This document shows positions 1 to 16,174 of a stretch of 16,174 nucleotides of DNA, piece by piece. The stretch spans positions 1-16,174 of the forward strand of contig JBDGSM010000018.1 of assembly GCA_042217545.1 (NCBI GenBank). The letters run 5' to 3'. A program made the position numbers and the translations under genes. Within the stretch, counting starts at the first letter, position 1, and each line of letters starts with the position of its first letter. A model generated the notes under the pieces. It worked only from the letters and a program-made list of their open reading frames with translations, was not told the origin of the DNA and ran no database searches. Origin of the DNA: Candidatus Nanohalobium sp. (lineage in GTDB: Archaea; Nanohalarchaeota; Nanosalinia; Nanosalinales; Nanosalinaceae).

Positions 1-230
1 ACCTCTGCTATATCCTCTCCTGAGCCCTGGATCAGGAGGCCTTCGTCTTCAAGCCTTTCTGCGGCTTTCCAGGCTTTTTTGGCATTTGTCTGTGATGTTA
101 GAATGACGAAAACTAGTTCCTGGAATATTCTTTCTTCATCGGCTTCTTTTAAGGCCTTGAATTCCTTGATTCTCTGCTTTATCTCGTCCTCTTTCTCTCT
201 GTACTGTTGCAGGACTTCGCTTTTCTTCAT
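1..230 (-). CDS. ogg: N-glycosylase/DNA lyase (archaeal 8-oxoguanine DNA glycosylase, HhH-GPD), N-terminal part; runs off the left edge
   Basis: Not in the ORF track. Manual translation from ATG at 230-228 gives MKKSEVLQQYREKEDEIKQRIKEFKALKEADEERIFQELVFVILTSQTNAKKAWKAAERLEDEGLL, open to the edge. The pattern 'I..RI.EF......IF.EL.F.ILT....A' matches the N-terminus of archaeal Ogg. The ATG overlaps the upstream TGA (ATGA). Confidence 0.75.
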   Translation of the reverse strand, partial: MKKSEVLQQYREKEDEIKQRIKEFKALKEADEERIFQELVFVILTSQTNAKKAWKAAERLEDEGLLIQGSGEDIAE

Positions 231-1021
231 TTCTTTAGCTCTTTGTCTATAGCGTTCTTCACATTCTGGTAAGACGGTGAGCTGACCATTTTTCCGTTTA
301 CGAAGATTGAAGGGGTGCTGCTGACGCCGTTACCTTTTCCTATCTGGAGGTCGTTCTGCACTTCTTTCTGTATGCTGGATTTGTCCAGACATGCGTTCAT
401 CTTCTGGTCGCTGATATTGGTGGTCTGGGATGTCAGATCTAGTACAAGCGCTCTTGTCAGCCATCTTGTCTTTTCACTTCCCTGGTTGTCGTACATTGTG
501 TGATGGAACTTCCAGAAGTTTCCAGGATCATTGTCCAGTACGCATTCTCCTGCTTTTGCTCCCAGAGTCGATCCAGGACCCAGGAACGGGAAGTTAACGA
601 AGTAGTACTTTACCTTCCCGGAGTCGATGTAGTTCTTCTTCACCTTGGGAAATACCTGCTGGTCAAACCTGTTGCAGTACGGACAGCGGTAGTCTCCGAA
701 CTCCACAACTTTGACAGAAGCGTTCTGGCTTCCTATCATCGGCTGCCTATCCAGATGGAAAGGACTTGACTTGAACATCGCAAGTATCTGCGGAAGAATC
801 AGTGCGACGAAGATCAGAAGAGTTACGCCTGTAAGGCCTTTCAACAGAAGGCTTCTGCGTTTTGAACTCTTGGCCTCTGACTGGTTCTTCTTCTCCCGTT
901 TAGCCTTCTTTACCTTTTCCTTCTGGTGGGAGTTAAGTTCTTCCTCGTGTTCTTCCCCCCAGTGAATATGGAGCTCTCTATCAGAATCAAACTCCTTTTC
1001 ACAGAACTCACATTCTACCAT
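227..1021 (-). CDS. DsbA-family (Thioredoxin_4) thiol-disulfide oxidoreductase with N-terminal C2H2 zinc finger and TM anchor
   Basis: G...A.VKVVEFGDYRCPYC active site; cis-Pro loop GVSSTPSIFVNG; TM segment GLTGVTLLIFVALILPQILAMF; N-terminal CEFC-x12-H-x4-H. Confidence 0.92.
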   Translation of the reverse strand: MVECEFCEKEFDSDRELHIHWGEEHEEELNSHQKEKVKKAKREKKNQSEAKSSKRRSLLLKGLTGVTLLIFVALILPQILAMFKSSPFHLDRQPMIGSQNASVKVVEFGDYRCPYCNRFDQQVFPKVKKNYIDSGKVKYYFVNFPFLGPGSTLGAKAGECVLDNDPGNFWKFHHTMYDNQGSEKTRWLTRALVLDLTSQTTNISDQKMNACLDKSSIQKEVQNDLQIGKGNGVSSTPSIFVNGKMVSSPSYQNVKNAIDKELKK

Positions 1022-1041
1022 GAAACCTAATTGAAGAAGAG

Positions 1042-1051
1042 ATTATAAAAA
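1042..1051 (-). promoter_or_regulatory. Putative TATA box for the ZnF-DsbA/ogg unit
   Basis: Minus strand reads TTTTTATAAT, 21-30 nt upstream of the ATG at 1021, consistent with a leaderless archaeal transcript. Confidence 0.55.
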
Positions 1052-1117
1052 TCCATGATTCCGGTCTGAAGATATAAACCGCTGCAGGCCTTCAAACATT
1101 ACCAGAGAAGATTTTCA

Positions 1118-1381
1118 ATGTTCGAAGGATCAGGCCCCGACCTCCTACTACACCTGTTGACCACTTCTGTGGCCGCAGTTCTTTTCGCAGTATCATACAG
1201 GGCCTATCGGAAGAAGGAGAACAGCAAGTTCATCTATATCTGCGCTGCATTCGGAGTATTCGCAGTCAAGGAAGGAGTTATAGCTGCGAACACGGAACTT
1301 GTAAGGCCTGAACTTACTGCAGCAGTGCACGTGCTGAACCTTACTATACTGGGACTTTTCTTCCGGGGAACGATAAAATGA
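1118..1381 (+). CDS. Small hydrophobic (about 3 TM) membrane protein, translationally coupled to the downstream wHTH regulator
   Basis: 87 aa with three hydrophobic stretches and a SYRAYRKK positive-inside loop; its stop overlaps the next ATG (ATGA 1378-1381). Confidence 0.75.
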   Translation: MFEGSGPDLLLHLLTTSVAAVLFAVSYRAYRKKENSKFIYICAAFGVFAVKEGVIAANTELVRPELTAAVHVLNLTILGLFFRGTIK

Positions 1382-1840
1382 AGGCAGAGATATGTGAAAA
1401 GGTCAGGGAAAAACCAGGAATACATTTCAGATGCCTTCAGAGGGAGACAGAATGTTCCTCAAGCACTTTGAACTACCATCTAGAGGATATGGAGCCTTAG
1501 GGAACGCAGGATTCATGGTTACAGAAGATTTTATCCTCCAGAAGTCCCCGAAAGTTTTGAGAAATCTCTCGCTGCCCTCAATCATGATGTTAGAGGTCTG
1601 ATGCTTTACAGGATAAAGGACGGCACCACCCAGAAAGAACTTGTTGAGGAGCTTGACAGGTCGAAGTCAACGGTTTCAGTCCATCTGAAGACGCTGCGGG
1701 AGGACGGCCTTATCAGGGAAGAGTCTGAAGGCCATTCCAAGAAGATTTACCTGCAGAAAGATGCTTTAAGTGCTGTAGAAAGATATGCCTCTGATCTGGT
1801 GGACAAGGTCTCTGACGGCTTTATCGAGATGTGGGATTGA
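1378..1840 (+). pseudogene. Tandem winged-helix transcriptional regulator (COG3398-like) split by a +1 frameshift near 1495
   Basis: ATG 1378 gives MKAEICEKVREKPGIHFRCLQRETECSSSTLNYHLEDMEP* (PGIHF...LNYHL wHTH pattern). The frame starting at 1496 reads LRERRIHGYRRFYPPE...ALNHDVRGL into ORF 1601-1840 (second wHTH, TQKELVEELDRSKSTVSVHLKTL). Removing one C from GAGCCTT fuses them. Could be a sequencing error. Confidence 0.8.
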
Positions 1841-1967
1841 GTTTGATTAATGTTTCATTCCTGCCCTCCTCTTCCAGCCTCTGCTCTGCTTCATCATTTG
1901 AAAGGCCTTCCTTGCCTGTATCAAGCTTCTCGTAAATCTCTCTGATTTTTTCGGAGTGCCAGGACAT
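1821..1967 (-). pseudogene. 48-aa stand-alone or truncated N-terminal domain of a P-type cation ATPase (Cation_ATPase_N-like)
   Basis: Manual translation: MSWHSEKIREIYEKLDTGKEGLSNDEAEQRLEEEGRNETLIKLNPTSR*. Matches the 'WH....E....L.T...GLS..EA..RL...G.NE' motif; similarity ends at GRNE. TTTAAA at 1994-1999 lies 27-32 nt upstream. Confidence 0.75.
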
Positions 1968-2012
1968 TACAGGGGAGAATTATCCTCATCACGTTTAAAG
2001 TATTCAGTTAAG

Positions 2013-3428
2013 CTAGTAGGAGTGGATTGAATCGCCTTTAGCTGCTTCGGCGGCATCGCACAGGGCCTCAGGGAATGTCGGGTGCGCATGGATGGTGTTT
2101 GCTATGTCGTCCAGGTAGGCGTTCATCTCAAGCGCAAGTGTTGCCTCCGCTATCATATCGGAAGCCCGTGCACTGACTATCTGGACACCGAGAAGCTTTT
2201 CGTCTTTATCCGCCACAACCTTGACATAACCCGCCTCCTTGTTGGTGGAAAGAGCCCTGCCTGAAGCGCTCATGGGGAACTTGCCTACTTTCAGTTCATC
2301 GTATTCTTCCCGGGCATCTTCCTCGTTAAGGCCTACAGTAGCGACCTCAGGATCAGTATACATCACCGCGGGAATATAATCGTTATCGAAGGCCGCCGGT
2401 TTTCCTGCTACCACTTCTCCCGCGACCTTTCCCTCACGATAGGCCTTGTGAGCAAGCAAGGGTTCTCCTGCAGCGTCTCCGATACATAGAATGCTGTTAT
2501 CACCGGTCTGCATCTTTTCATCTACCTCTACAAAGCCATCTTCGTTTATCTCCACATCAGTGTTTTCCAGGCTGAGATTTCCCAGTACAGGCCTTGTCTC
2601 TCTACCTGCGGCTACAAGGATGTAGTCTCCTTCAAGTTTGAGCTTTTCTCCGTCCTGTTCGGCTACAAGGACAGGTTTTCCATCATCCCTGTACTCGACA
2701 TCCTGCGCTTTTGCGGAGGTATAGATCTCGTCCTCGTACATGTCGCTTGTCTCCTGGATGGAGTTCACTACTTCCTCTTCAAACATTCCGAGAACTCTTT
2801 CACGTGCCTCTACGACTTTTACTGTCGCTCCAAATTTGCAGAACTTTGTGACGGCTTCCATACCGATGTATCCGCCCCCGACCACTACTATCTCATCAGG
2901 TACTTCATCAAGCTCCAGCACTTCACGTGAGGAGATCACGCGATCCTTATCGAACTCGAGTCCGGGTATCTCTATCGGCTGTGATCCTGTCGCGATAATA
3001 GCTTTCTCAAACTCAACGTTCTCAGCGTTGTGCTCCTCCTCTACACGTATAGTATTTGAGTCAAGGAATCGGGCCTCACCTTCCATGTACTCGACATTAT
3101 GGTGGTCCAGCATGTTAAGGACTCCGTTATCAAGCCTTTTTACGGCGGAATCCTTCCATTTCTGTATCTCGCTGAACTCGACATCTATCCCTTCTGTATG
3201 GATGCCTATCTCATCCCAGTGCTCTATATCCTTCTTGAAACCGGCGGCGTGGATCAAGGCCTTCGCCGGGATACATCCATGGTTCAGGCATATGCCGCCT
3301 ACTTTCTCCTTCTCGACAAGTACTACGTCTTTTCCTTTTTGACTGGCTCTGATCGCTGCAGTGTATCCTCCGGGACCTGCACCTATTACAACGACATCTG
3401 TGCCGGTGGTAATATCTCCTACAACCAT
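2013..3428 (-). CDS. lpdA: Dihydrolipoamide dehydrogenase (E3)
   Basis: FAD-binding GAGPGGY, redox disulfide GGICLNHGCIP, NAD-binding VVGGGYIG, C-terminal HAHPTFPE. Confidence 0.97.
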   Translation of the reverse strand: MVVGDITTGTDVVVIGAGPGGYTAAIRASQKGKDVVLVEKEKVGGICLNHGCIPAKALIHAAGFKKDIEHWDEIGIHTEGIDVEFSEIQKWKDSAVKRLDNGVLNMLDHHNVEYMEGEARFLDSNTIRVEEEHNAENVEFEKAIIATGSQPIEIPGLEFDKDRVISSREVLELDEVPDEIVVVGGGYIGMEAVTKFCKFGATVKVVEARERVLGMFEEEVVNSIQETSDMYEDEIYTSAKAQDVEYRDDGKPVLVAEQDGEKLKLEGDYILVAAGRETRPVLGNLSLENTDVEINEDGFVEVDEKMQTGDNSILCIGDAAGEPLLAHKAYREGKVAGEVVAGKPAAFDNDYIPAVMYTDPEVATVGLNEEDAREEYDELKVGKFPMSASGRALSTNKEAGYVKVVADKDEKLLGVQIVSARASDMIAEATLALEMNAYLDDIANTIHAHPTFPEALCDAAEAAKGDSIHSY

Positions 3429-4862
3429 TTAGATCTCCATAAGCATTTCATCAGGCTGTTCTAGGTTTTTGATAACCTGGTTCATGAAGCGAGCCGCCTC
3501 CGCACCATCTATAACTCTGTGATCATAGCTTAGTGAAAGCTTGACGGTATTCCGGACTTTTACCCCCCCATCTACGACCTGGGGCGTCTCCTGGATCTTT
3601 CCGACACCCAGGATCGCCACCTGAGGATAGTTGATTATCGGGGTAAAACCTTCTCCACCTATAGCTCCTATATTTGTAATCGAAAAAGTACCTCCCTGCA
3701 GATCCTGAGGTGAAAGACTTCCTGATTGAGCTTTCTCAACTTTATCGGAGATACCTGACGCCAGTTCCACGAGATTCCTGCTGTCTACATCCTCCACTTT
3801 CGGAACAAGAAGGCCTCTCTCAGTATCGACAGCTATGTTGAAATCGTAGTACTTCTTCCGGACTATCTCATCGTTTTCGTCATCCAGCTCTGCGTTCAGA
3901 TTTGGATGGTCCTTCATTGCCACGTAACAGGCCTTCATGATGAAAGGAAGATAGGTCAGATGCTCATCTATGTCGTCCTTTACCTCTTCACGAAGCCTGA
4001 CCAGCTTTGTAACATCTGCAGTATCCATATGGGTTACGTGAGGTGCTGTAAACCGGGCTTTTGTCATCTTCGAGCCCGTCATCTTCTTGACCTGGTTCAT
4101 CTCCACACGTTCGACCTCTCCTTCATCAGTCTCAACAGTACGAGTATTTTCAGAGGACTCAGCTTCTGGGCCATTACCTTTTTCTGTCGCGTTCATTACA
4201 TCAGTCCTGAGGACTTCACCGCCTTTGCCTGATCCCTCTATCTCGGAGATGTCGAGGCCTTTCCCTCGTGCCAGTCTTCTGACCGAAGGGGATGCCTGCG
4301 ACCCCCTGCTTTCGCCTGGAGCCTCTGAACTGCTACGTGAGGCCTTCTCTGAGCTTTCCGATGTTCCGCTATCTGCGTAGTCCTGCAGTTCTTCTTCAGT
4401 TATCCTTTCACCGGTCTTGATCTCGGCGAGATCTATTCCTTTCTCCTCGGCAAGTTTTCGAACTTTAGGCAGCGCTAGGACATCGCCAGAGCTTGAAGAA
4501 ATTGTAGTACCTGTTTTTTTCTCTGGAGTACTGTCTCTGTCTTCTTCTACGTCTTTATCTTCATCTTCGTCTTCCGTAGGCGAGTTTTCTGCTTTTTCTG
4601 AGGCATCTTCCTGTTCCTCAGCATCTCCAGTCTCCATTTCCAGTATTACGTCGCCGACCTCTACCCTGTCGCCCGGTGAGGCCTTGAATTTCTTTATTAT
4701 TCCATTAGAGGGGGCCGGTACCTCCACTACTGCTTTGTCTGTTTCCGCCTCTGCGAGAATCTGGTCTTCTTCTACTTCGTCGCCTTCCTCTACTTTCCAG
4801 TCCAGGAGTTTTCCCTCGGTGACTCCTTCACCGGTATCCGGGAACTCGAACTCCAGGGTCAT
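3429..4862 (-). CDS. pdhC: Dihydrolipoamide acyltransferase (E2) with one lipoyl domain and two peripheral subunit-binding domains
   Basis: Lipoyl motif ETDKAVVEV; catalytic DHRVIDGA; GGTFSITNIG. Start moved from 4889 to ATG 4862 (MTLEFEFPDTGEG), just downstream of the E1-beta stop. Confidence 0.95.
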   Translation of the reverse strand: MTLEFEFPDTGEGVTEGKLLDWKVEEGDEVEEDQILAEAETDKAVVEVPAPSNGIIKKFKASPGDRVEVGDVILEMETGDAEEQEDASEKAENSPTEDEDEDKDVEEDRDSTPEKKTGTTISSSSGDVLALPKVRKLAEEKGIDLAEIKTGERITEEELQDYADSGTSESSEKASRSSSEAPGESRGSQASPSVRRLARGKGLDISEIEGSGKGGEVLRTDVMNATEKGNGPEAESSENTRTVETDEGEVERVEMNQVKKMTGSKMTKARFTAPHVTHMDTADVTKLVRLREEVKDDIDEHLTYLPFIMKACYVAMKDHPNLNAELDDENDEIVRKKYYDFNIAVDTERGLLVPKVEDVDSRNLVELASGISDKVEKAQSGSLSPQDLQGGTFSITNIGAIGGEGFTPIINYPQVAILGVGKIQETPQVVDGGVKVRNTVKLSLSYDHRVIDGAEAARFMNQVIKNLEQPDEMLMEI

Positions 4863-4866
4863 TGTA

Positions 4867-5838
4867 TCAGAACTCCAGAAGTTCTTCAAGGCCTTCTAAG
4901 GCTCTCTCCGTGTTTGGCATGTAGTAATCCTCCAGGGTGTAAAGCGGATAAGGCACGTCAGGGCCTGTAACACGTTTTACAGGTGCTTCAAGGTTGAGTA
5001 TTGCCTCCTCGTTGATCCGGGTTGCGATCTCCGCGCCGAATCCTGCAGTCTTCGGTGCCTCGTGCAGCACCATGGCTCTTCCTGTTTTCTTTACAGACTC
5101 TATTATGGCGTCGAAGTCTGTTGGATAGATCGTTCTAGGATCTACTATCTCAATCTCTGCATCGACTTTCTCTGCTGCTTCTTCAGCTACAGGGACCATC
5201 GCACCCCACGCAATTAACGTGGCGTCGTCTCCCTCCTGGACTATCCTGGCTTTCTCCAGGTCTACTTCTTTCTCCCTGTCGACTTCCTCCTTGAAGGCCC
5301 TGTAAGTCTGCTTCGGCTCAAGGAAAACCACGGGATCATCCAGCTGTATCGATTTCCTCAGAAGAGAGTAAGTGTCCTGCGGAGTGCTTGGTATGACTAC
5401 GTGTAGGCCTTCAGCATGGGCAAAGAAAGCTTCCGGCGATTCCTGGTGGTGTTCCAGTGCCGATATGCCGCCTCCGTAAGGCGCCCTGATAGTAATCGGC
5501 ACCTCGAAGTCTCCCCTGCTTCTCAGCCTGAATCTTGCAGCATGTTCCTTGATCTGGTGGAAGGCCAGGTAGGAAAAGCCGGAGAACTGGATCTCCGGTA
5601 CAGGCCGCATACCTTTCAAGGCCATTCCGATACCTGTCCCTACGATACCTGATTCGGCGAGAGGACTGGAGAAAACTCTTTCTCGACTGAATTCGTCCTG
5701 AAGGCCTTCGGAAGCTCTGAAGACGCCTCCGTCCTGTCCGACGTCCTCTCCGTAAACTACAACATCTTCATCGTTTTCAAGTTCATCGTGAAGTGCCGCG
5801 TTCACTGCTTCAACAATATTCATCTCCTCGGCAGCCAT
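4867..5838 (-). CDS. pdhB: Pyruvate/2-oxoacid dehydrogenase E1 beta subunit
   Basis: GEDVGQDGGVFR, SPLAESGIVG, RPVPEIQF, EHHQES, FLEPK, HEAPKTAGFGAEI motifs. Confidence 0.96.
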   Translation of the reverse strand: MAAEEMNIVEAVNAALHDELENDEDVVVYGEDVGQDGGVFRASEGLQDEFSRERVFSSPLAESGIVGTGIGMALKGMRPVPEIQFSGFSYLAFHQIKEHAARFRLRSRGDFEVPITIRAPYGGGISALEHHQESPEAFFAHAEGLHVVIPSTPQDTYSLLRKSIQLDDPVVFLEPKQTYRAFKEEVDREKEVDLEKARIVQEGDDATLIAWGAMVPVAEEAAEKVDAEIEIVDPRTIYPTDFDAIIESVKKTGRAMVLHEAPKTAGFGAEIATRINEEAILNLEAPVKRVTGPDVPYPLYTLEDYYMPNTERALEGLEELLEF

Positions 5839-6896
5839 TATTCGTCACCTCCGAAAAATTTCTGACACTGTTTCTTTTCTTTCTCAAGTATCTCTGGTGT
5901 GTCCTTGTAGACATAGTCGAACATCTCCTCCATCTCCGGATCATCCTCGTCGATGGCCTCGTTGGAGGCCTCTTTGATCTTTTTCTCGGCTTCTTCCTCG
6001 AAATCCTCGAGTTCATCCTTCCAGATACCCTGATCTTTCAGGTAATCCCGGAAGCGTTTCAGAGGGTCCTTATCCTTCCATTTCTCGACTTCGTCCTCGT
6101 CCCTGTATCTGGTTGAGTCGTCTGAAGTGGTATGGTCATCAAGTCTGTATGTCAGGGCCTCGAGCAGTACTGGTTCGCCGTTTCTGGCTTTTTCAATTGC
6201 TTCCTGCACGCCCTTTATGACTGCGATTATGTCGTTTCCATCGACCTGTACTCCGTCAATGCCGTGGGCTACTGCCTTCTGCGCCAGTGTATCGGAGTTT
6301 GTCTGTCTTTCAACCGGCATAGAAATCGCGTATTGATTGTTCTGTACTATAAATACGTTGTGGCCCGAGAAGACTCCTGAAAAGTTCAGTGATTCGTGGA
6401 AGTCGCCTTCGGAAGTGCTTCCGTCGCCTGTAAAGCTGACTACTGCGTTTTTCTCGCCCTGTTTCTCCATGGCCATCCCTATTCCTGCAGCATGCTGGTT
6501 CTGCGTTCCGACCGGTATCGCAACCGGCAGATTGTTACCTAGGTCTGTCTGACCGTTGGTATCACCCATCCAACGCATGAAAAGCTTCTTCAACGAGGCT
6601 CCACGTGCTATAAAAGCTGCTGTCTCCCTGAAACTTGGAACCATCCAGTCTTCTTCCGTCATCGCGTGGACAGCGCCGATCTGGGCGGCTTCCTGGCCCT
6701 TGTGCGGTGCATATGTCGAGATTTCGCCTCTCCTCTGGATTGAGAAGGCCCTTTCGTCAAATTTTCTTGCCAGCACCATCTGTTTATACAGCTCCCGGTA
6801 CTCCTCATCACTAATTCCATGATCGTTTTCCTCGTCCTCAGTGCCGAGAACCTCGATTTTCTCCACTTTCGCGGAGTGAACTTCTTTCCGAACCAT
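5838..6896 (-). CDS. pdhA: Pyruvate/2-oxoacid dehydrogenase E1 alpha subunit
   Basis: ThDP motif GDGSTSEGDFHE...NNQYAIS; GQEAAQIG; YRLDDHTTSDD. Substrate (pyruvate versus branched-chain 2-oxoacids) cannot be fixed from motifs alone. Confidence 0.95.
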   Translation of the reverse strand: MVRKEVHSAKVEKIEVLGTEDEENDHGISDEEYRELYKQMVLARKFDERAFSIQRRGEISTYAPHKGQEAAQIGAVHAMTEEDWMVPSFRETAAFIARGASLKKLFMRWMGDTNGQTDLGNNLPVAIPVGTQNQHAAGIGMAMEKQGEKNAVVSFTGDGSTSEGDFHESLNFSGVFSGHNVFIVQNNQYAISMPVERQTNSDTLAQKAVAHGIDGVQVDGNDIIAVIKGVQEAIEKARNGEPVLLEALTYRLDDHTTSDDSTRYRDEDEVEKWKDKDPLKRFRDYLKDQGIWKDELEDFEEEAEKKIKEASNEAIDEDDPEMEEMFDYVYKDTPEILEKEKKQCQKFFGGDE

Positions 6897-7005
6897 TATA
6901 TTTGAAGAAAGGCGTTGAGTCGTATATAAAAAGTGGTTTGCGACCGAGAGGTAAACAGAGAGCGAGGCCTTAACCTATTAATTCAGCCAGAAGGAAACTT
7001 CTTAC
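6897..7005. promoter_or_regulatory. Divergent promoter region between the dehydrogenase operon and acetate-CoA ligase
   Basis: Minus-strand TTTTTATATA (6923-6932) is 27-36 nt upstream of the pdhA ATG. Plus-strand TATTAATT (6977-6984) is 22-29 nt upstream of ATG 7006. One AGGCCT (6965-6970) lies between them. Confidence 0.6.
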
Positions 7006-9042
7006 ATGCTTGACAGACTCTTCTCTCCGGAAACAGTAGCGGTCGTCGGAGCCTCCAGGAAGGAGGGAAAGACAGGCCACGAAATATTCGATAATCTTCT
7101 GCACGACTTCGAGGGAGAAGTCGTCCCAGTAAATCCCAACGCCGAAGAAGTGCACGGAGAAAAGGCCTATGACGAAGTTCCAAGAGGAACAGAACTTGTA
7201 GTAATAGCTGTACCGGCCAGGATCGTCCCAGATATAATGGATCAATGTGGCGGGAAAAATGTGAAAGCGGCGATATTAGTCTCCGCAGGATTCTCGGAGG
7301 TCGGTAACAAGGATCTCGAGGACGAAGTACTGGAAAAAGCAGAAGAAAACGATATTGAACTTCTCGGACCGAACGTCTTAGGCCTTATCAACGTAGAGAA
7401 CTCGATGAACGCATCTTTCGCATCCAGGATGCCGGAACCAGGAGATATATCATTCATGAGCCAGTCCGGGGCATTCTGCACCGCCATACTGGACTATGCA
7501 AAGGCAGAACACATAGGTTTCAGGCACTTCGTCTCCATAGGCAACAAGGCGATGATAAACGAAGTAGACCTGCTCGAAAAATGGCGTGAAGACGATACAG
7601 AGGCCATACTATCCTATACAGAAGGCATAGAGAATGGAAGAAAGTTTCTGGAGGAGGCAGAACATACTTCCAGGGAGACACCGATCATAATGGTCAAATC
7701 CGGTAGAACCGACGAAGGAGGCGACGCAGCCAGCTCCCACACAGGAAGCATAGCAGGCAGCTACGAGGCCTACAGGGCTGCATTCCGGAAATGCGGTATA
7801 ATAGAGGCAGAGTCGAACAGGGAGCTACTTGACTATGGAAAGGCCTTCGCATACCAGCCTCTCCCTGAAGGAAAGAATATTGCGGTCGTAACGAACGCAG
7901 GGGGGCCTGGAGTCCTGACGGCGGATGAGATCTCTGAGCATGAAATGGAGCTTGCCAACTTCACATCGGAGACCACGAGAAAACTTGAGGATTCTATGCC
8001 GGATGAATCGGGGAAGAACAACCCGCTCGACGTGATAGGCGACGCAGGACACGAGAGATACCGTGATGCGCTCGACACAGTTATCAGGGACGACAGAGTA
8101 GACTCCATAATCGTCATACTGACCCCACAGGCCAATACAGAGATCGAAAAAACAGCAAAAAGCATAGTTAAGGCATCAGAATCCACGACAAAGCCGATAA
8201 TGGCTTCTTTCATGGGTGAGAAGGATGTAGGAAAAGGGATCAAGACACTGGAGGAAAACGACATACCAGACTTTGAGGACCCGAAAGACGCGGTCAAGGC
8301 CCTCAAAGAGATGAATGAGTACAGGAAGTTCCAGGAGGACTTCAGAGAATATCATCACTTCGACTACGATGAGAGGATGGCGGAAAAAGCACTTGAGACT
8401 CCTGAAGGCTACGAAGAATACGAGGAGCTCCTGAAAGCCTATGGGTTCCAGTTCCCACTGACAAAGGTCGCGGAAGCGCCTAATCCTGCTGCCGAAGCCG
8501 CGCAACAGGTAGGATACCCTGCAGTCATGAAGATCAGGTCGCCTGATGTCCAGCACAAGACAGACATCGGAGGAGTTCAGACCGGCATTGAATCCAGGAA
8601 GGAAGCAAAAGAGGCCTTCAACGACATAGTGGAGGGGGTATATGATCACAGGCCGGGAAGCGAGATCAAAGGCGTCCTGGTACAGGAGGAGATGGAAGGC
8701 CTGGAAGTTGCTTTAGGTATGAAGAGGGATCCACAGTTTGGACCGATGATAATGGTGGGTCTCGGAGGCATATACATCGAAGCGCTTCACGATATCTCCT
8801 TAGGAATAGCGCCAATATCAGAGCAGGAAGCGGACAAGATGATAGAAGAGCTACAGAGCTCGGAACTTTTTGAAGGGGTCAGAGGCAAAGAACACAGTAT
8901 CGAGACAGTTAAGAACGCTATAATGAAGCTGGGAGAGGTAGCGATGAACCACGATGAGATACATGCCATAGATATCAACCCGCTTATCCTGAAAGAAGAA
9001 GAGGCCTACGTAGCAGACATAGAGATGGAATTTGAAGAATAA
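7006..9042 (+). CDS. acd: Acetate-CoA ligase (ADP-forming), fused alpha-beta
   Basis: CoA-binding N-terminus (AVVGAS...GK.G, PVNP), LLGPN.LG, SQSGA, VSIGNKA, phospho-His AASSHTGSIAG, TNAGGPG, NPLDVIGDA; ATP-grasp beta domain HKTDIGGV, RDPQFGP...VGLGGIYIE, DINPL. Confidence 0.96.
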   Translation: MLDRLFSPETVAVVGASRKEGKTGHEIFDNLLHDFEGEVVPVNPNAEEVHGEKAYDEVPRGTELVVIAVPARIVPDIMDQCGGKNVKAAILVSAGFSEVGNKDLEDEVLEKAEENDIELLGPNVLGLINVENSMNASFASRMPEPGDISFMSQSGAFCTAILDYAKAEHIGFRHFVSIGNKAMINEVDLLEKWREDDTEAILSYTEGIENGRKFLEEAEHTSRETPIIMVKSGRTDEGGDAASSHTGSIAGSYEAYRAAFRKCGIIEAESNRELLDYGKAFAYQPLPEGKNIAVVTNAGGPGVLTADEISEHEMELANFTSETTRKLEDSMPDESGKNNPLDVIGDAGHERYRDALDTVIRDDRVDSIIVILTPQANTEIEKTAKSIVKASESTTKPIMASFMGEKDVGKGIKTLEENDIPDFEDPKDAVKALKEMNEYRKFQEDFREYHHFDYDERMAEKALETPEGYEEYEELLKAYGFQFPLTKVAEAPNPAAEAAQQVGYPAVMKIRSPDVQHKTDIGGVQTGIESRKEAKEAFNDIVEGVYDHRPGSEIKGVLVQEEMEGLEVALGMKRDPQFGPMIMVGLGGIYIEALHDISLGIAPISEQEADKMIEELQSSELFEGVRGKEHSIETVKNAIMKLGEVAMNHDEIHAIDINPLILKEEEAYVADIEMEFEE

Positions 9043-9086: not shown

Positions 9087-9873
9087 TTATTCCCGGTTGA
9101 CTGTTGCGCCTGCTGAGGCCTCGGTATTGGATGATGCTTCTCTATCCTCCGTCCGCGTCTCCGAGTTCGGGCTGGCGGATGCGTTGATTGACGTGTCTAT
9201 ATCTGTCTTGAAATCTGCCTTGGAGTCTTCTTTCTCCGCTTTGACCTTGAAGTCATTCTGGTCAGGTACTTTGACAGTGATTTTTCCGTCTGCATCTGTC
9301 TTTCCCTGGAATTCGCCGTTTACTCTTACTTCTGCATTCGCTACTGCTTCTCCTTTTTGTGTGGCGGTGACTGTGACGTTGTTACCTGTTTTGATCTTTC
9401 CAGAAATGTTCAGCTGGATTCTGCTCTGTTCCCCCTTCTTCTGTTTGTTTGCTGATTTGTTCTTGTCTTTACCTGATAGGAAGGCCGTGATGGCTGCGAA
9501 AATTCCCTGATGGTCTCCGGACTTTGCTTCTTCGCTCACCTGAGCTCCTGCGCCATTCGAGTTGTTGTTATGTGCCTGGCTTGGAGTTCCTTTGTTTTCT
9601 GCGTGTTCTGAGGCCTTTACATCTGCTTTTGCAGAGCTCTTTCCCTCCATGTCGCTTACTCTTTCCTGGAGAGATGAAAGCTTCTGCTTGATCTGTGCCA
9701 GTTGTTTCTGTATGTGATCCAATGCGTTCATGATTCCTGTGTCTGCGGAGGCGTTGACCCCCCGTGTTGCTCTGTGTGGTTGTATGGGCCGATTGTGCGG
9801 CTGTTGGGGCTGCCATTCCCAGTAGCAGACCTGCTACCAGGAAGGCGGTCGTGAAACTGTTTTTGAAGTTCAC
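9087..9873 (-). pseudogene. Secreted protein (signal peptide, coiled coil, C-terminal beta-sandwich-like domain) split by an extra G in a G6 run
   Basis: GTG 9873 gives a signal-peptide-like MNFKNSFTTAFLVAGLLLGMAAPTAAQS. Removing one G from the run at 9758-9763 (C6 on +) yields TGVNASADTGI fused to ORF 9087-9731, which has the VTVTA...V.NAEVRVNG...GKTDADGKITV beta-sandwich pattern. Confidence 0.7.
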
Positions 9874-10003
9874 TGAGTTCTTCAGGCCTTTACTGCTGTT
9901 TCCAGGCCTTTTTGTTGTTTTGTTCGTGGATGTTCCTCTTCCCGGGAGGAAACTTTTTTCCTGTTTCCGGGGTTGCCCTGGATCGTGTCGTTGATATGAC
10001 CTT

Positions 10004-10518
10004 TCAGGCCTTTATTCCTTTTTCCATACCTTTGCCGGGGTTTGGAGGTTTCTTCTTTTTCTGTTTTTCTATTGCTTTCTGTATCTTCTTCTGGGCCTTG
10101 AATGGGACTTTTTTCTTGATCTCTTCTAGTTTGCTGATGTCTCTGTTCGATATATTCTGGAGTTTTTCGGTCAGGTTTCTGTTTTTCGTTTTGTTCACCA
10201 GTGTTCTGGACTTCTCCATGCTGAAATGGTACTGATTCACCAGATCTGAAGCTTTATCTGACATATTTCTCCTGGCCATCACGTTGGCCTCGGCAAGAGA
10301 CTCCTCCGCGTTGTTTGTTATCGCTTTGGCCTTTAGATCCGGCCCCCGATCATACCTGCAAGGCCTACTTCAAGGCCTTCCACAAAGTTTTCAAGAGGAT
10401 AGAGCAGGTCTCCCGGGACCATTCCGGGATCTGTTGAACTTGATTTCTGAGGAGGCTTCGCTGAGACCGAGGCTGTCAGAACTACAAGTGCTGAAAGTAC
10501 TAATGCGGTCTTCCTCAT
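10004..10518 (-). pseudogene. Secreted DUF5667-like protein split by a missing G in a G5 run; 3' end uncertain
   Basis: Signal peptide MRKTALVLSALVVLTASVSA, then PGMVPGDLLYPLENFVE. Adding one G at 10343-10347 gives GGPDLKAKAITNNAEESLAEANV joined to ORF 10004-10282. The 'PGD.LY.L....E...KA......A.E.L.EA' pattern is DUF5667-like. Other frames remain open toward about 9880, so another indel near 10010-10023 is possible. Confidence 0.65.
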
Positions 10519-10540
10519 ACCTCTCTAAAAACTCCGCACC

Positions 10541-10550
10541 GTTTTAAAAG
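10541..10550 (-). promoter_or_regulatory. Putative TATA box for the secreted-protein pair
   Basis: CTTTTAAAAC on the minus strand, 23-32 nt upstream of ATG 10518. Confidence 0.55.
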
Positions 10551-10635
10551 GGATATGTGAACAATCGTTTATTCGGGGCTCCCTGTTCTCGCTATGGAGG
10601 TTCTGAGCTTTTTTCAACAGTTCAATTTTGTTTAA

Positions 10636-10699
10636 CAGGCCTGAAAGCGACTCGTTACGAGCGGTGGCTGTTCTTTCCGGGAAGTGCTTTTCGGGCCTG
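10636..10699. other. Intergenic inverted repeat enclosing two small hairpins (possible structured RNA or cruciform)
   Basis: CAGGCCTGAAAGC (10636-10648) pairs with GCTTTTCGGGCCTG (10686-10699) with one bulge and one G-U. Inner hairpins are CTCG-TTA-CGAG and CTTT-CCGG-GAAG. Confidence 0.4.
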
Positions 10700-10756
10700 A
10701 GATCCCGGGTTTGACTGCCGGTAGATTTAAGCTGTTTTGTTGGACAAGGTAGATGT

Positions 10757-11164
10757 ATGGAGCTACGTGACTGGGCTGGTATGGCGACATATGGTCTTTC
10801 TGTTCTCTTCCTGATGTCCGTGTTTCTTACTGGTTCTGCAGGCCATGAGGCCTCGAATGTCTCTGATGTGAAGCTTGTTCAGAAGCATTCTCAGACATCT
10901 TTTGATACTGCGGCGCTGGAACTTACTGTTTCGGGTAATGCCAGTGTCTCTGGCGGTGATGCAGGTCTCAGGGTTAACTCTACGTCTTTCAGGAACGATA
11001 CTCTGAGGGTTGATCTCGATGCTGTCTCACAGAATCTCTCCCGGGATGCTCCAGAGAGAAGCCTTAACTACAGTTTAAAGGTGGGGATGGGGTCGCAGCT
11101 GCCGGACAGAGTTCTTGTTTACGGTCCTTCGGGAAGAACCGATCTCTTCAGGCCTGAGAGCTAG
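10757..11164 (+). CDS. Hypothetical secreted or membrane-anchored protein with several N-glycosylation sequons
   Basis: N-terminal hydrophobic segment; sequons NVS, NAS, NST, NDT, NLS, NYS; upstream ATTTAAG (10725-10731) at TATA distance. Confidence 0.75.
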   Translation: MELRDWAGMATYGLSVLFLMSVFLTGSAGHEASNVSDVKLVQKHSQTSFDTAALELTVSGNASVSGGDAGLRVNSTSFRNDTLRVDLDAVSQNLSRDAPERSLNYSLKVGMGSQLPDRVLVYGPSGRTDLFRPES

Positions 11165-11212
11165 TTTTCTCATGGCAGGGGGTTTAAGTTTCCTGTGCTG
11201 TAAAGAATGTGT

Positions 11213-12040
11213 ATGAACCTGGAGTTTGATCTGGAGCAGTACCCACGGGAGATAATAGTTTCGACATGCCTTCTAACTGTTCTGGGCGCGATGCAGTTTT
11301 TGCCTGATGGATCTCTAAACTTTTTACCGTTCAAAGGATTTTTCCAGGGCCTTTTCGCGAATACTGTGGGATTTGTCTCCTTCGTGTTCTCGGTATCCAG
11401 ACTACACATCAAACTGGGATACAGCGGGTACGTGCTCGGTTTCCTGATGCTTATGGTTGTGCTATCCACTTTTGCGTACAGGAAATCTTCCTGGATAGTA
11501 CATTTCCTTGCGACAGCAACGGTTGCACTGTACGGTTTCCTGGCGCTGATAATGGCGTTCCTGTTCCCAGCCCTTGTACCGGATGTACAGGTGTTAGGCC
11601 TTGGAGTGCAGGTCATCTTTATCGGCCTTGCAGCAACCGAACTTTACAAGCTACTGGACTCAGATGATTTCGAGTTCGAGGCCTTCAGGAGCGGTTACGC
11701 GGCTGCTGTCTGGCAGACTGTGTTTGGAACTGCTTTCCTGGGTTTCCTTCAGTACGTCGGCGACTACCAGGCTCTAGGTCCCGTGATGACAGGAGTATTT
11801 GTGATTCTCGGCCTCCTGGGAATTGTGATGATGTTTTCAGCTTACGAACTTGCTATCAACACGCGGAGAGGCTTCTACATGAGCTTTGGATTCCTCTTTT
11901 TGCTGTTCGTGGCCGCGATTATCGCAGGATCCCTTCTAGGCGTCCTGGTTCCTTTCGGCCTGATGATACTTCTATGGGTCAACAGGAAGGCCTACGGCGT
12001 GGAGTACGAGTTCCCGGACTTCGAAAGCTACCTGCCGTAG
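11213..12040 (+). CDS. Hypothetical polytopic membrane protein (about 8-9 TM)
   Basis: Long ORF dominated by hydrophobic segments with acidic ends. TTTAAG at 11183-11188 favours ATG 11213 over 11207. No family recognised. Confidence 0.8.
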   Translation: MNLEFDLEQYPREIIVSTCLLTVLGAMQFLPDGSLNFLPFKGFFQGLFANTVGFVSFVFSVSRLHIKLGYSGYVLGFLMLMVVLSTFAYRKSSWIVHFLATATVALYGFLALIMAFLFPALVPDVQVLGLGVQVIFIGLAATELYKLLDSDDFEFEAFRSGYAAAVWQTVFGTAFLGFLQYVGDYQALGPVMTGVFVILGLLGIVMMFSAYELAINTRRGFYMSFGFLFLLFVAAIIAGSLLGVLVPFGLMILLWVNRKAYGVEYEFPDFESYLP

Positions 12041-12088
12041 AAACCGGTCTCCGTAAGCATTACATAACTTGTGACCCAGTTATCGAGT

Positions 12089-13249
12089 ATGGTTGACAGA
12101 GAAGAAGCACTGGAACTTCACAGCAAAAACCCCGGAAAAATCTCCGTAGAGCCCTCGGTAGAGATAGAGTCCAGGGAAGACCTCAACCTAGTATATACGC
12201 CAGGAGTGGCAGAACCCTGCAGGGAGATCTCACGTGGCAGGGAGAAAGCATACAAATACACTTCTAAAGGAAACCTCGTCGCAGTAGTTTCCGACGGAAC
12301 AGCAGTACTCGGCCTTGGAAACATAGGGCCTGAGGCCTCGATGCCGGTGATGGAGGGAAAAGCCGACCTGATGAAGAAGTTTGGAGAAGTCGACGGATTT
12401 CCGGTCTGTATCAATGCGGACTCCGCAGAAGATATCGTGGAGCATGTCGAGAGAGAAGCTCCGACCTATGGGGCGATAAACCTTGAAGACATCCGTGCAC
12501 CAAGATGTTTCAAGGCAGAGGAACAGCTCAAGGAGAAACTGGATATACCTGTCTTCCATGATGATCAGCACGGCACGGCGATCGTCGTACTTGCCGCGCT
12601 GAGAAACGCGCTCCAGATCTCCGGCAAAAAACTTTCAGAAGTCAAGATAGTTATATCGGGAGCAGGAGCATCAGGTATAGCGGTCGCAAACTTCCTGATT
12701 GAAGCAGGGGCTGAAGAGATACTACCTGTGGATTCGTCGGGCATACTGAGAACCAACGATGAAAACAGATACAAGGGAGAGCTCGCAGCCAGGACAGAGG
12801 CAAGAACGGAGACAGGAGGCCTTGAAGATGCAATGGAAGGCGCGGACGTGTTCATAGGTCTCTCGGCGCCAGGAATAGTTAATAAAGATATGATTAAATC
12901 AATGAACGATGATCCGATCGTCTTCGCACTTGCAAACCCTGATCCAGAGATACTGCCTGAAGATGCAAGGGAGGCAGGAGCCTTCATCACTGCTACAGGA
13001 GGAAGTGACTTTGACAACCAGGTCAATAACTCGCTAGCATTTCCCGGAGTTTTCCGCGGCGCACTGGATATTAAGGCCTCTGAGATCAATGAGGAGATGA
13101 AAAAAGCTGCTTCAAAGGCCATAAGTGAGTTTATTGAACCAGAGAAAGACAAGATAGTGCCTGAGACTCTGGACAAGGACCTGGCGATGGAGATCGCTGA
13201 AGAAGTGGCTGAGGCAGCCAGGGAGACTGGAGTCGCGAGAAAGAGTTGA
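12089..13249 (+). CDS. NAD(P)-dependent malic enzyme (short type, no PTA domain)
   Basis: YTPGVAEPC, VSDGTAVLGLGNIG, PVMEGKA, INLEDI, FHDDQHGTA, GAGASG, FALANPDPEI, NQVNNSLAFPG. ATG 12089 preferred over GTG 12071. Confidence 0.96.
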   Translation: MVDREEALELHSKNPGKISVEPSVEIESREDLNLVYTPGVAEPCREISRGREKAYKYTSKGNLVAVVSDGTAVLGLGNIGPEASMPVMEGKADLMKKFGEVDGFPVCINADSAEDIVEHVEREAPTYGAINLEDIRAPRCFKAEEQLKEKLDIPVFHDDQHGTAIVVLAALRNALQISGKKLSEVKIVISGAGASGIAVANFLIEAGAEEILPVDSSGILRTNDENRYKGELAARTEARTETGGLEDAMEGADVFIGLSAPGIVNKDMIKSMNDDPIVFALANPDPEILPEDAREAGAFITATGGSDFDNQVNNSLAFPGVFRGALDIKASEINEEMKKAASKAISEFIEPEKDKIVPETLDKDLAMEIAEEVAEAARETGVARKS

Positions 13250-13295
13250 GACCTTTCGGAATCCTTTTCAGTTTTCCTTTCTCTACTATTTTTCC

Positions 13296-14186
13296 ATGGA
13301 TGAAGAAGTAAAGAAGAAGTATGTCCGTTCGGGAAAAGTGATCCAGAAAGCCAGGAAGAAGGCAAGAAAGATAGCTGAACCAGGAACGGAGTACAGGGAG
13401 ATAGCTGAAACCCTGGAGAAACTTATACGGGATGAAGGCCTGGAACCTGCTTTCCCTGTCAATCTCTCGGCTGATGAAGAAGCAGCTCATTACTCCCCTG
13501 GAACAGATACTGAACGGGTCCTGAAGAAGGAAGAAGTCCTGAAGATAGATATAGGCGCTCACTGCGATGGATACATTGCGGACACTGCTGTAACCGTAAA
13601 TCCTTCAGGCAAACATCAGGAAATGATTGAGACAAACCGCCAAGTCCTGGAGAAGGCCCTGGAGTTCATCGAACCAGGTAAAACTGTCGGTGAGTTTGGA
13701 ACTTTTGTCCAGAACCAGATACCGGATGAATACAGTGTTATCAGAAACCTTACAGGCCATTCCCTTGGCCATTACACCCAGCACGCAGGCCTGTCGATCC
13801 CGAACAACAGGAACAAGTCCAGACATGTCTTCGAAAAGGGAGACGCTGTTGCAATCGAGCCATTCTTATCTACTGGAAGTGGAAAGATCAAGGAAGGTAA
13901 AGAAGGTAATATCTACCTGGAGAAGGGCGGAAACGTTAGAGGCCGTGCAGAGAGAAAACTTCTGAAGAAGATAGAGAGCTTTCAAGGCCTGCCGTTCTCT
14001 CCGAGGTGGTTCGACAGCTTTTCAGGGAGAGAAAGGATAGCTCTGAAGAAACTGGTACAGTCAGGAGCTGTAAAGTCGTATCCAATCCTCAGAGAAGTCG
14101 ATAAAGGGATTGTAACTCAGGCCGAGCATACAGTCCTGATAGGCGTTGACGACGGAGAGAACATAGTCACTACTCGTTCTGAATAG
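13296..14186 (+). CDS. map: Methionine aminopeptidase type II
   Basis: AFPVNLS...AAHYSP, KIDIGAHCDGYIADTA, NLTGHSLG, AIEPF, helical insertion and QAEHT, as in the archaeal type II enzyme. Confidence 0.96.
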   Translation: MDEEVKKKYVRSGKVIQKARKKARKIAEPGTEYREIAETLEKLIRDEGLEPAFPVNLSADEEAAHYSPGTDTERVLKKEEVLKIDIGAHCDGYIADTAVTVNPSGKHQEMIETNRQVLEKALEFIEPGKTVGEFGTFVQNQIPDEYSVIRNLTGHSLGHYTQHAGLSIPNNRNKSRHVFEKGDAVAIEPFLSTGSGKIKEGKEGNIYLEKGGNVRGRAERKLLKKIESFQGLPFSPRWFDSFSGRERIALKKLVQSGAVKSYPILREVDKGIVTQAEHTVLIGVDDGENIVTTRSE

Positions 14187-14691
14187 CGCAGACCTCGGGA
14201 TTCCCGGTCCTGCCGATGAAGTAGATCAGCAGGCCCATGCCCGTGGCTCTTACAAGGCCGCCCTGGAACGGCATCGCTGCTAGCACTCCTGTAAGTCCCA
14301 GGAAACCCAGTAGGCCTACTCCACAGCCCGCGCATCCCGCAGCGATAAATCCTGGCAGAATACCGGAGATTTCTCATTTTTGCTCCTGAGGCCTTCATCT
14401 GCGTCCAGAAGTTGGTAAGCACTATCCCTGTCAAAAGGCTATAGAGAGCTACCGTTGCAGTATTAGTTATGCCGCCCGAGAGATAGGTTCCCATTATTCT
14501 GAACTGTATCGAAGGTATCCAGTACTCTATACCAGCTGAAAACATCTGTAAGCTGTATCCTGGGTTGCTGCTTAATGCCAGAAGGATAAAAGTTAAAGAG
14601 GAAAAAGAACGGTTACTGAGGCCTTTCTCCAGTCCTGGAGAGCTGCCTCAAGGCCTTTAGGAAGTTTTCCAAGCCAGTTCTCCGGTTTCAT
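14170..14691 (-). pseudogene. About 4-TM membrane protein with a GCAGCG (CxxC) motif, coupled to the upstream DsbA; interrupted by two indels
   Basis: ATG 14691 overlaps the DsbA stop (ATGA) and gives MKPENWLGKLPKGLEAALQDWRKASVTVLF. Adding one T to the run at 14602-14606 (A5 on +) continues SSLTFILLALSSNPGYSLQ into ORF 14545 (MFSAGIEYW...AKMR). A second shift near 14370 gives ISGILPGFIAAGCAGCGVGLLGFLGLTGVLAAMPFQGGLVRATGMGLLIYFIGRTGNPEVCAIQNE*, stop at 14172-14170. Confidence 0.8.
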
Positions 14692-15641
14692 TTGTTGAGT
14701 TCGCTGTCAAGCACGTCCACGAATCTGGAGTATGGCTGTGCTCCTACAACTCTCGTGGCGCTGTCGGAGTTTGAACGGTAGATCAGGAATCCTGGCGTGC
14801 CCGAGATTCCCTTGTTACGTCCTTCTGATTTGTCCTCGTTGATCGCACTTGCTACGCCCGAGTCCAGGCATGACTGTATGGCGCTCTTGCTGACTCCTTC
14901 CTGTGACGCCCAGTCCTTGATCTTGCTGTCCACATTCGAGCTGCTGACCACTTTCTGGTTGTCGTAGACCTTCTTCTTGACCGACCAGAACGTGTCATTG
15001 CCACCTTCCTGGTAGACGCATTCCATAACATGAGCGGCGTCCTTGGCCCATGGGTGGATTCGAGGAGGTAGAGGATAATCCTTCCATACTACTTTTACCT
15101 TGCCTGTGTCGATGTAGTTGGTCTTGATCCTCGGGAAGGTGTTGGATTCGAAACGCTCACAGTAAGGACATTCAAAGTCCTCGTACATCACCATGGTGAC
15201 TGGTGCATCTTTCTTCCCCATCACCGGATCGTTCTTGTAGGTCAGGCCTGAAACAGAGACACCTGTCTTGATGCCTGGCGGACTGTTGCTTCCGCTACCA
15301 CCTGTACCGTTGTTCGAGGGCGCATTGCCTGTTTGTGTTCCGGGAATATTTAGACCGGAACCCGATGCCAGAAGGCCTGAAGAGAGGCCTACCGCGACGC
15401 CCAGGACGAAAACGGTCAGGAATGCAAGTCTCAGAGGTATCTGTACAGAACCAGAATCAGAAGGCTCCACAGTTTCAGTTAGATCAATATCCTCTATATC
15501 CTCGTCCGCCTGTGCTTCAGTATTGTTTTCCACATCTTTCTCATCTGCTTCTCCTCCGTGAACCCGGCCCTCGTGAATATGCAGGCCTCGTTCCGAGTCG
15601 AACTCTTCACCGCAGATATCGCACTTATAGCTGTCCGCCAT
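14688..15641 (-). CDS. DsbA-family thiol-disulfide oxidoreductase with N-terminal C2H2 zinc finger, acidic linker and TM anchor
   Basis: DPVMGKKDAPVTMVMYEDFECPYC, DYPL...HPWA, cis-Pro GISGTPGF, VVGAQPY; TM segment LAFLTVFVLGVAVGLSSGLLA; N-terminal CDIC-x12-H-x4-H. Confidence 0.94.
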   Translation of the reverse strand: MADSYKCDICGEEFDSERGLHIHEGRVHGGEADEKDVENNTEAQADEDIEDIDLTETVEPSDSGSVQIPLRLAFLTVFVLGVAVGLSSGLLASGSGLNIPGTQTGNAPSNNGTGGSGSNSPPGIKTGVSVSGLTYKNDPVMGKKDAPVTMVMYEDFECPYCERFESNTFPRIKTNYIDTGKVKVVWKDYPLPPRIHPWAKDAAHVMECVYQEGGNDTFWSVKKKVYDNQKVVSSSNVDSKIKDWASQEGVSKSAIQSCLDSGVASAINEDKSEGRNKGISGTPGFLIYRSNSDSATRVVGAQPYSRFVDVLDSELNK

Positions 15642-15684
15642 ACATATATACAGAATAAGAGATGTTAATAAAGAGAAGGGTTAA

Positions 15685-15700
15685 AGGGAGGTAACTCCCT
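15685..15700 (-). terminator. Hairpin followed by a pyrimidine tract downstream of cdc48
   Basis: Minus strand reads AGGGAG-TTAC-CTCCCT then TTAACCCTTCTCTTT, beginning 13 nt after the cdc48 stop. Confidence 0.5.
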
Positions 15701-15712
15701 CATAAAAGGCCT

Positions 15713-16174
15713 TTAAGCGTAGTAGTCAGGAGTGTCGTCTTCGTCCTGCTCGATCTTGTTCATCCTCTGGGTCATCGCCCTGTACTGCTCAAGGTTATCC
15801 TTCGTCGCAGTAGGCCTCACATCTTCAAGAGCGTTCTCAAAGTCTTCCATGGTCGCTTCATCGGAATCGATGTCGCTACGCAGAGCGTTCATGCCTGCTT
15901 CACGGCAGATCGACTCTATATCGGAACCTACAAAGCCTTCTGTCCTGGAAGCAAGATCATCTAGGTCTACATCATCACTGACGGGCATATCCCGCGTATG
16001 GACATCGAAGATCTTTCTCCTGGACTCCTCATCCGGGACCTCGACTTCAACGTTCCTATCAATACGTCCAGGCCTCATAATTGCTGGATCGATCATGTCA
16101 GGCCTGTTCGTCGCCGCGATAACTGTCACGCCTTCCAGGGACTCGATTCCATCAAGCTCTGTAAGCAACTGGTT
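15713..16174 (-). CDS. cdc48: CDC48/VAT-family AAA+ ATPase, C-terminal part of the second AAA domain; runs in from the right edge
   Basis: NQLLTELDG...VIAATNRPDMIDPAIMRPGRIDR (second region of homology), TEGFVGSDIESICREA, DFENALEDVRPT; the frame is open to the edge. Confidence 0.93.
   Translation of the reverse strand, partial: NQLLTELDGIESLEGVTVIAATNRPDMIDPAIMRPGRIDRNVEVEVPDEESRRKIFDVHTRDMPVSDDVDLDDLASRTEGFVGSDIESICREAGMNALRSDIDSDEATMEDFENALEDVRPTATKDNLEQYRAMTQRMNKIEQDEDDTPDYYA

Follow-up and report, generated by a model that had tools for sequence, protein, structure and literature searches.

A highly iterated AGGCCT palindrome in Candidatus Nanohalobium and its relatives: genome-wide excess, turnover of sites and a possible recombination drive

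Why some genomes accumulate a palindrome of the restriction type is a question that has stood open for thirty years, as exemplified by HIP1, the highly iterated palindrome (HIP) of cyanobacteria. The same question is raised by a contig of 16,174 nucleotides from Candidatus Nanohalobium sp. (JBDGSM010000018.1, hereafter the window), in which the hexamer AGGCCT, presumably a StuI-type restriction site, recurs throughout. The window is contig C10 of a genome assembled to 1.03 Mb in 82 contigs (G000); other G-numbers denote genomes of the phylum, g-numbers genera and L-numbers loci, and genomes are called high when AGGCCT-rich (2.0-4.8 sites per kb) and low when AGGCCT-poor. The small genome, an acidic proteome and a same-family protein labelled as belonging to the genus Ca. 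Nanosalina point to a nanohaloarchaeon. A preliminary description of the window had reported the excess, and the counts agree: the 59 dispersed copies (37..16105, no strand assigned; first bases from 37 to 16100), or 3.65 per kb, compare with 4.9 +/- 2.5 (maximum 13) in 200 dinucleotide shuffles. They are a sample of 3,699 sites in G000, where every one of the 82 contigs carries 1.3-5.9 per kb, so that the excess is not confined to the contig. The ratio of observed to expected counts (O/E) in G000 is 15.1 on base composition and 5.1 on an order-2 Markov model, which is inflated by the motif itself. No other palindromic hexamer matches it, the runner-up having 603 copies, and TGGCCA is found only three times in the window (6470, 10273, 13766), as first noted. 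The abundance of AGGCCT is thus confirmed as real, genome-wide and lineage-specific.

A pure mutational hot spot, or a preference for certain codons, codon pairs or peptides, might produce such an excess, and the encoded tripeptides are in fact enriched. However, all three codon phases, both strands and the spacers are enriched alike (genes and spacers of G000 were called with a simple in-house gene caller, which returned 1,139 genes). Within the genes of the window the sites divide 5/19/21 by phase, with 17 in plus-strand and 28 in minus-strand genes, and the codon readings first proposed hold: on the plus strand, AGG CCT (Arg-Pro, phase 0) stands at 1304..1309, GAG GCC TAC (Glu-Ala-Tyr, phase 1) at 9002..9007 and GAA GGC CTG (Glu-Gly-Leu, phase 2) at 8697..8702. 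Genome-wide, AGGCCT is used in 479 of 621 Arg-Pro contexts (10.8% expected) and in 945 of 1,565 (8.1%) and 1,387 of 1,870 (9.2%) eligible contexts of phases 1 and 2, respectively. The spacer sites at 1086..1091 (no strand assigned), 6965, 9058, 10637 and 15707 fall outside called genes, as listed originally, and a further one lies at 1903; in G000 the spacer enrichment is 23-27 fold for tandem, divergent and convergent arrangements alike, and none of its 18 tRNA genes contains the word. The codon controls gave the same answer, with 3,037 coding sites against 585 +/- 22 in 20 synonymous shuffles within genes and 282 +/- 16 in 20 codon shuffles. No such enrichment is seen for other palindromes, the low genome G021 lacks the tripeptide excess, and a gain-only model of site turnover is rejected (below). 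Together, the synonymous shuffles and the enriched spacers largely refute a hot spot or codon preference, and we give it a very small probability; the palindrome acts at the level of DNA, as had been proposed.

How strongly each eligible position is drawn towards AGGCCT, and what is recognized, can be read from codon contexts. By phase, 77, 60 and 74% of eligible contexts spell the word in G000 (8-11% expected), 89, 72 and 73% in G003 and 56, 51 and 68% in G019, against 3-5% in G021. A conditional logistic model that allowed for codon, neighbour and 4-mer effects was fitted to at most 150,000 codons per genome (G003 was analysed from one third of its genome, 87,000 codons in this model); its log-odds for AGGCCT were 3.47 in G000, 2.86 in G019 and 4.22 in G003, against 0.09 in G021. 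AGGCCC and GGGCCT behave as partial sites with about half of the full effect (1.55-2.67), AGGCCA and AGGCCG reach 0.32-1.13, inner variants range from -0.15 to 0.74, and no variant is clearly drained. Recognition is graded, with an obligatory GGCC core; changes are best tolerated at the first and last bases, as in HIPs (PMC4390886). The hexamer, originally claimed as the unit, has flanks that are not wholly free: A is rare directly after it (0.39), consistent with the genome-wide avoidance of CTA/CTAG. CTAG is the rarest tetramer of G000 (O/E 0.24), as in haloarchaea.

The effect reaches the proteins. Tripeptides of the form [KEQ]A[FLSYCW] are 1.91, 1.37 and 2.11 fold over shuffles in the three high genomes, against 1.05 in G021, and their reversed controls stay at 0.86-0.99; likewise, RP is raised 1.2-1.5 fold and GL 1.3 fold (0.79 and 1.0 in G021). 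In alignments between G000 and G021, eligible triplets present in one genome alone number 979 in G000 and 412 in G021, against 472 and 493 for reversed controls. Proteins are altered to accommodate AGGCCT.

Within the phylum, 12 of 70 genomes are high (2.0-4.8 per kb, with rounded genome sizes), G046 is intermediate at 0.95 and the other 57 have at most 0.7. Every high genome falls in one clade (support 100). Relationships inside it were read from a two-gene tree of 32 genomes, built on 1,191 columns by a fast search and weak at several of its inner nodes. All three genomes of g1 and all three of g18 are high, g2 has two high and four low, and g21 four high and one decaying; the low genus g20 is the sister of g1. 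The decaying genome, G046, is the short-branched sister of the high G047, inside a high genus, and retains one of nine of the AGGCCT sites of G047 in aligned rpoA genes: it is a genome caught losing the word. The simplest reading is one gain followed by at least four losses, and several gains are also possible; the low G021 bears no amino-acid trace of an earlier excess. Outside the lineage, 80 loci of other archaea were not enriched (223 sites seen, 321 expected) and none was AGGCCT-dominated, beyond two copies in a 2.4-kb piece, and in 23 low genomes no alternative iterated palindrome was prominent in 5-kb rpoA loci, a weak test.

The positions of AGGCCT turn over. Sharing of site positions across genera gave odds ratios of 1.4, 1.7 and 2.6, against 1.9, 2.0 and 2.0 for control codons, the pair G019-G003 being the only one above its controls (2.6 vs 2.0), and within a genus sites are shared about twice as much as control codons (7.2 vs 3.4). 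Three pairs of closely related genomes, with 257 contexts in a first run and 227 in a stricter rerun, were fitted with a reversible codon model. By this fit AGGCCT is gained some 3-7 times faster and lost some ten times more slowly (~0.1x), the share of the log bias that falls on gain being 0.4-0.5, or 0.3-0.4 in the rerun, in which 998 of 1,000 bootstraps lay in 0.2-0.6. A fixation-bias model fell short of the best by no more than 0.9 and 0.3 log units (first run and rerun), a protection-only model was worse by 22.7 and 8.4 and a gain-only model by 11.6 and 12.2. These kinetics are moderate evidence for a bias in fixation, such as selection or biased conversion would produce. Occupancy is even over conservation classes (0.65-0.72), conservation of four-fold positions around AGGCCT does not exceed the average of the gene, no dip in synonymous divergence is seen around the sites, and contigs from public runs, all from one study, offered no usable polymorphism.

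A further property is that neighbouring sites exclude each other. Pooled over four high genomes, pairs occur at 0.4-0.5 of the expected frequency at 9-20 bp, 0.63-0.71 at 21-40 bp and 0.77-0.84 at 41-60 bp, and spacing is normal and random beyond 80 bp. With amino-acid contexts fixed, the exclusion is described by g = 1 - 0.93 exp(-d/19 bp) and is seen in each genome tested; partial sites are likewise scarce close to full ones, and other palindromes have no short-range gap. Hairpin avoidance was rejected as the cause, same-word pairs of the other 63 palindromes not being depleted. The window itself holds a few close pairs, one 12 bp apart at 10361..10378 (no strand assigned) and others at 9884/9904, 15373/15385 and 16070/16100. 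The raw pair counts suggested a 10.5-bp rhythm, but with amino-acid contexts held constant it disappeared (two extra parameters improved the fit by no more than 2.2 log units), and no kilobase period was found in the complete G019 (spectral test, p = 0.76; one genome, by a method other than the damped sine of Xu et al.). Occupancy is uniform across the genes of G000 (chi2 992, df 948), with no fixed position near promoters or start codons and dips only at TATA and start regions. An integrase-flanked island of G019, recently acquired, runs for 13.4 kb without the word. The island (L115:5191 to L116:13329, ~205-233 kb) is almost AGGCCT-free and has a virus- or plasmid-like part as well as what we take to be heavy-metal genes; a search of virus loci for relatives of one of its proteins found none.

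From the size of the effect, the kinetics and the exclusion we infer an AGGCCT-binding protein with a short footprint and a small, position-free advantage for each site. We hypothesize that this protein biases recombination toward AGGCCT alleles, as a molecular drive, a reading that we favour tentatively and place somewhat short of even. A sequence-specific protein would read AGGCCT, require the GGCC core, tolerate G for A at the ends and occupy some 20-40 bp. Where two versions of a locus met in recombination, by cell-to-cell DNA transfer or by conversion between chromosome copies, the version bearing the site would be passed on more often. Any position able to become AGGCCT would then, wherever it lay, be driven to do so by a bias on the order of e^3 to e^4, even at the cost of amino-acid changes, and a second site inside one footprint would add less. 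The sites may be a by-product of the drive or weakly useful, and would decay once a lineage loses the factor. That such a drive is methylation-independent and sequence-specific, acts in an archaeal symbiont and was turned off on at least four occasions in closely related lineages is quite possible, though we lean to doubt.

Two ideas from the preliminary description, a recombination or uptake signal and a site for a chromosome protein, both fit the turnover kinetics and the 40-bp exclusion. Under the latter, weak selection would favour a chromatin or nucleoid protein site, each AGGCCT bringing a tiny gain in fitness (scaled coefficient 3-4) that is redundant within a footprint; the kinetics would be the same. 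The exclusion, at about 40 bp, is comparable to the length that one or two archaeal histone dimers cover, a dimer taking up 30 bp, five or more histone-fold genes occur in these genomes, and within-genus persistence exceeds that of control codons. In contrast, spacing is random beyond 80 bp with neither a 10.5-bp nor a kilobase period, a 13.4-kb gap is tolerated, the word has been lost in many relatives, and the histones common to G000, G019 and the low G021 look alike, which removed them as candidates. We consider such selection, which accounts for the data almost as well, rather unlikely, and prefer the recombination drive because the force ignores gene function and position and changes amino acids, and because there is no long-range order, gaps are tolerated and loss is repeated; these same marks are the ones reported for uptake sequences. 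G019 has up to seven histone-fold genes (L106:2558, L106:16172, L128:5132, L138:3659, L143:16315, L145:2251 and L155:9220; five with Pfam PF00808), most with orthologues in G000 and G021, and two of the proteins have a C-terminal coiled coil.

Several points weigh against the drive. The kinetics cannot tell it from weak selection, and their fit uses few contexts near synonymous saturation, with an extreme background fit for the pair G003-G023. The 19-bp scale cannot be a tract length, since conversion tracts in Haloferax span 0.6-5 kb (PMC8223754). No gene tracking AGGCCT abundance was found and nine candidates failed, and ComEC and DprA were not found in any of the five genomes searched, where a non-homologous archaeal system is possible.

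Modification-directed repair, the model of Elhai for HIP1, had been suggested as well: an enzyme would mark GGCC or AGGCCT and repair would keep the marked strand. It could raise gain and lower loss together, the end bases are the best tolerated to deviate, as for HIP1, and AGGTCT is slightly enriched, as deamination of 5-methylcytosine would give. Nevertheless, the suggestion is not supported. A C5 methyltransferase is present in one of 12 high genomes and 14 of 58 others (PF00145 profile, 41 genomes), leaving 11 of the 12 without a cognate methylase. A beta-class N4/N6 enzyme had no match in the complete G001 and G003, the D12 class was found in none of five genomes, and N6_Mtase gave no strong match common to three complete high genomes, its matches being strong in G003 and the low G021 and weak in G001 and G058. 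The Eco57I, MT-A70, Vsr and phosphorothioate families did not turn up in the gene-content screen and were not searched directly. MutS was not found in the five genomes searched, and NucS is present in all five and about 80% identical between high and low. The Vsr-type product AGGTCT/AGACCT is not depleted (log-odds +0.50 to +0.74, against 0.33 in G021), nor is there a drain of transition neighbours, and synonymous divergence is not lower near sites. Furthermore, the two genomes that do carry a GGCC system, G017 and G021, with an M.HaeIII-like methylase (E 1.8e-95 to PDB 1dct) and an NgoPII-family nuclease, are depleted in AGGCCT (97 and 73 sites), and GGCC itself falls to 704 copies in G021 against 6,377 in G000. 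We regard this model as improbable. The two loci (L001:1456-3355 in G017; L002:1456-3375 in G021) are 87% identical between two genera, and by this similarity the system was likely transferred recently between them.

In order to find the factor, genes common to G000 and G019 and missing from the low G021 were screened (86-100 genes, 73 proteins scanned). Candidate leads from this screen are two small acidic genes, in synteny in G000, G019 and G003 but not found in G021 (G003 L167:1960-2220; G019 L116:16335-16598), and a class I S-adenosylmethionine methyltransferase (G019 L128:9475-10083). DnaG is present in 28 of 41 genomes, many of them low; the archaeal DnaG was not found by this query in the complete G015 and G021 and is present in 20 of 24 family members. 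An S-adenosylmethionine (SAM) methyltransferase (L120) is absent from the complete G001 and an integrase from the complete G003, and the small SPEARE ATPase is present in the low G015 with merely weak matches in the high G022. A second family, of large proteins (3,300-3,500 aa) whose C-terminal, SPEARE-like ATPase region shares 34-36% identity with the small ATPase, occurs at G001:875204 and G003:981149 and was not found in G000 or G019. A VRR-NUC nuclease, in 29 of 70 genomes, has sequence classes that cut across the trait; an ART-like protein and a thymidine kinase occur in one of five genomes each and Mrr-like membrane proteins in two of five; a phosphoesterase and a DUF2582 protein do not track the trait; and NucS and RadC are found in high and low genomes alike. 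PADLOC, run on 17 unknown proteins, returned weak matches for one coiled-coil protein only, and two small unknown proteins had no usable family in Atlas, metagenome scans for one of them giving no locus.

The absence of a tracking symbiont gene from these screens might mean that the recognizing factor comes from the haloarchaeal host or a mobile element, the trait following host or virus; loss can be fast, as in G046, and transfer of a methyltransferase between symbiont and host has been proposed (PMC11001535). But the trait is confined to one clade and spans whole genera (g1, g18), AGGCCT is rare in the haloarchaeal loci sampled, and the screens covered one low genome and one third of G003. 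An outside factor is accordingly, in our view, decidedly improbable, a shade more so than repair. None of the 80 virus loci, out of 121, that were obtained with flanks is shown to infect this lineage. An unrelated viral contig, L302 (GC 56%), has 30 dispersed AGGCCT and 32 CTCGAG in 10 kb, with enrichment of the WGGCCW type, and an open reading frame (ORF) at 4101-4691 that is adenine methylase-like with an NPPY motif.

As to the window itself, two public runs, possibly those from which the assembly was made, yield contigs that match it almost letter for letter. At 1495 one base is missing in the contigs of both covering runs, a possible one-base assembly error in the window, and a short helix-turn-helix-like ORF just downstream (1601-1840) looks truncated at its start. 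From the translations, 2013-9042 presumably holds a pyruvate/2-oxoacid dehydrogenase cluster on the minus strand (E3, E2, E1 beta, E1 alpha), faced by what we take to be an acetate-CoA ligase-like gene. Rfam gave no match in the window.

The AGGCCT case offers genomes of 1 Mb without the methylases that complicate cyanobacteria, and a trait present or absent among species of one genus, so that its cause is testable by gene-content comparison and footprinting. A force at the DNA level strong enough to bias proteins in a DPANN lineage bears on phylogeny, codon models and metagenomic binning. Should the recombination drive be true, the preference of one protein would have rewritten some 2% of the genome, along with amino acids in the hundreds, and paired comparison could for the first time reveal what causes a HIP. 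New here are the distance over which sites exclude each other, the kinetics of their turnover and the decay in progress in G046. No published description of AGGCCT as an archaeal iterated palindrome was found, in agreement with the preliminary description, in a literature search that missed most subscription papers; the word does not occur in the main text of PMC11001535 or PMC10266531, and supplements of nanohaloarchaeal methylome papers could bear on the point.

Where, then, does AGGCCT stand among known systems? Cyanobacterial HIPs include HIP1 (GCGATCGC) and alternates such as GGCGCC (Calothrix PCC 7103) and CAGGCCTG (Synechococcus PCC 6312; PMC4390886, PMC5861425). The last of these contains the AGGCCT hexamer, at 0.37 per kb and O/E 14.7 (PMC5861425). 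HIP1 is described as raising transformation and recombination (PMC13756078, bioRxiv 2024.09.10.611283), and for alternate HIPs Elhai found a cognate methyltransferase (PMC4390886). Like HIPs, AGGCCT is a single short palindrome, GC-rich, that far outnumbers every other and is scattered over genes and spacers alike; it is tolerant of deviations at its ends and patchily lost among relatives. Unlike them, it is archaeal, denser (a hexamer at 2-4.8 per kb, against 0.2-2.7 per kb in the accounts available), without a cognate methyltransferase in the families searched, with positions that appear not to be conserved across genera and without a kilobase period in G019 (10-90 kb for HIPs in the same accounts); nor do these accounts describe a 40-bp exclusion for HIPs. 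It is not HIP1 proper, CGATCG having an O/E of 0.99 in G000.

The uptake signal sequences (USS) of Pasteurellaceae and the DNA uptake sequences (DUS) of Neisseria are 9-10-base non-palindromic words. They share with AGGCCT an origin by point mutation, an approximate doubling of the encoded tripeptides (PMC2817400) and indifference to gene function, and two USS within 100 bp do not raise uptake (PMC7811141), close pairs thus adding little; as with these words, newly acquired DNA lacks AGGCCT. By contrast, AGGCCT is a 6-base palindrome three to four times denser, its close pairs are avoided, whereas uptake words cluster as terminators and are recognized by competence machinery, of which the five genomes searched yielded neither ComEC nor DprA. 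It is also the same kind of word as Type II restriction-modification sites (HaeIII/NgoPII, GGCC), and two relatives have a GGCC system, but those relatives avoid AGGCCT and the high genomes lack that system. AGGCCT works like HIP1 or an uptake sequence and, by the tests made, is a member of neither.

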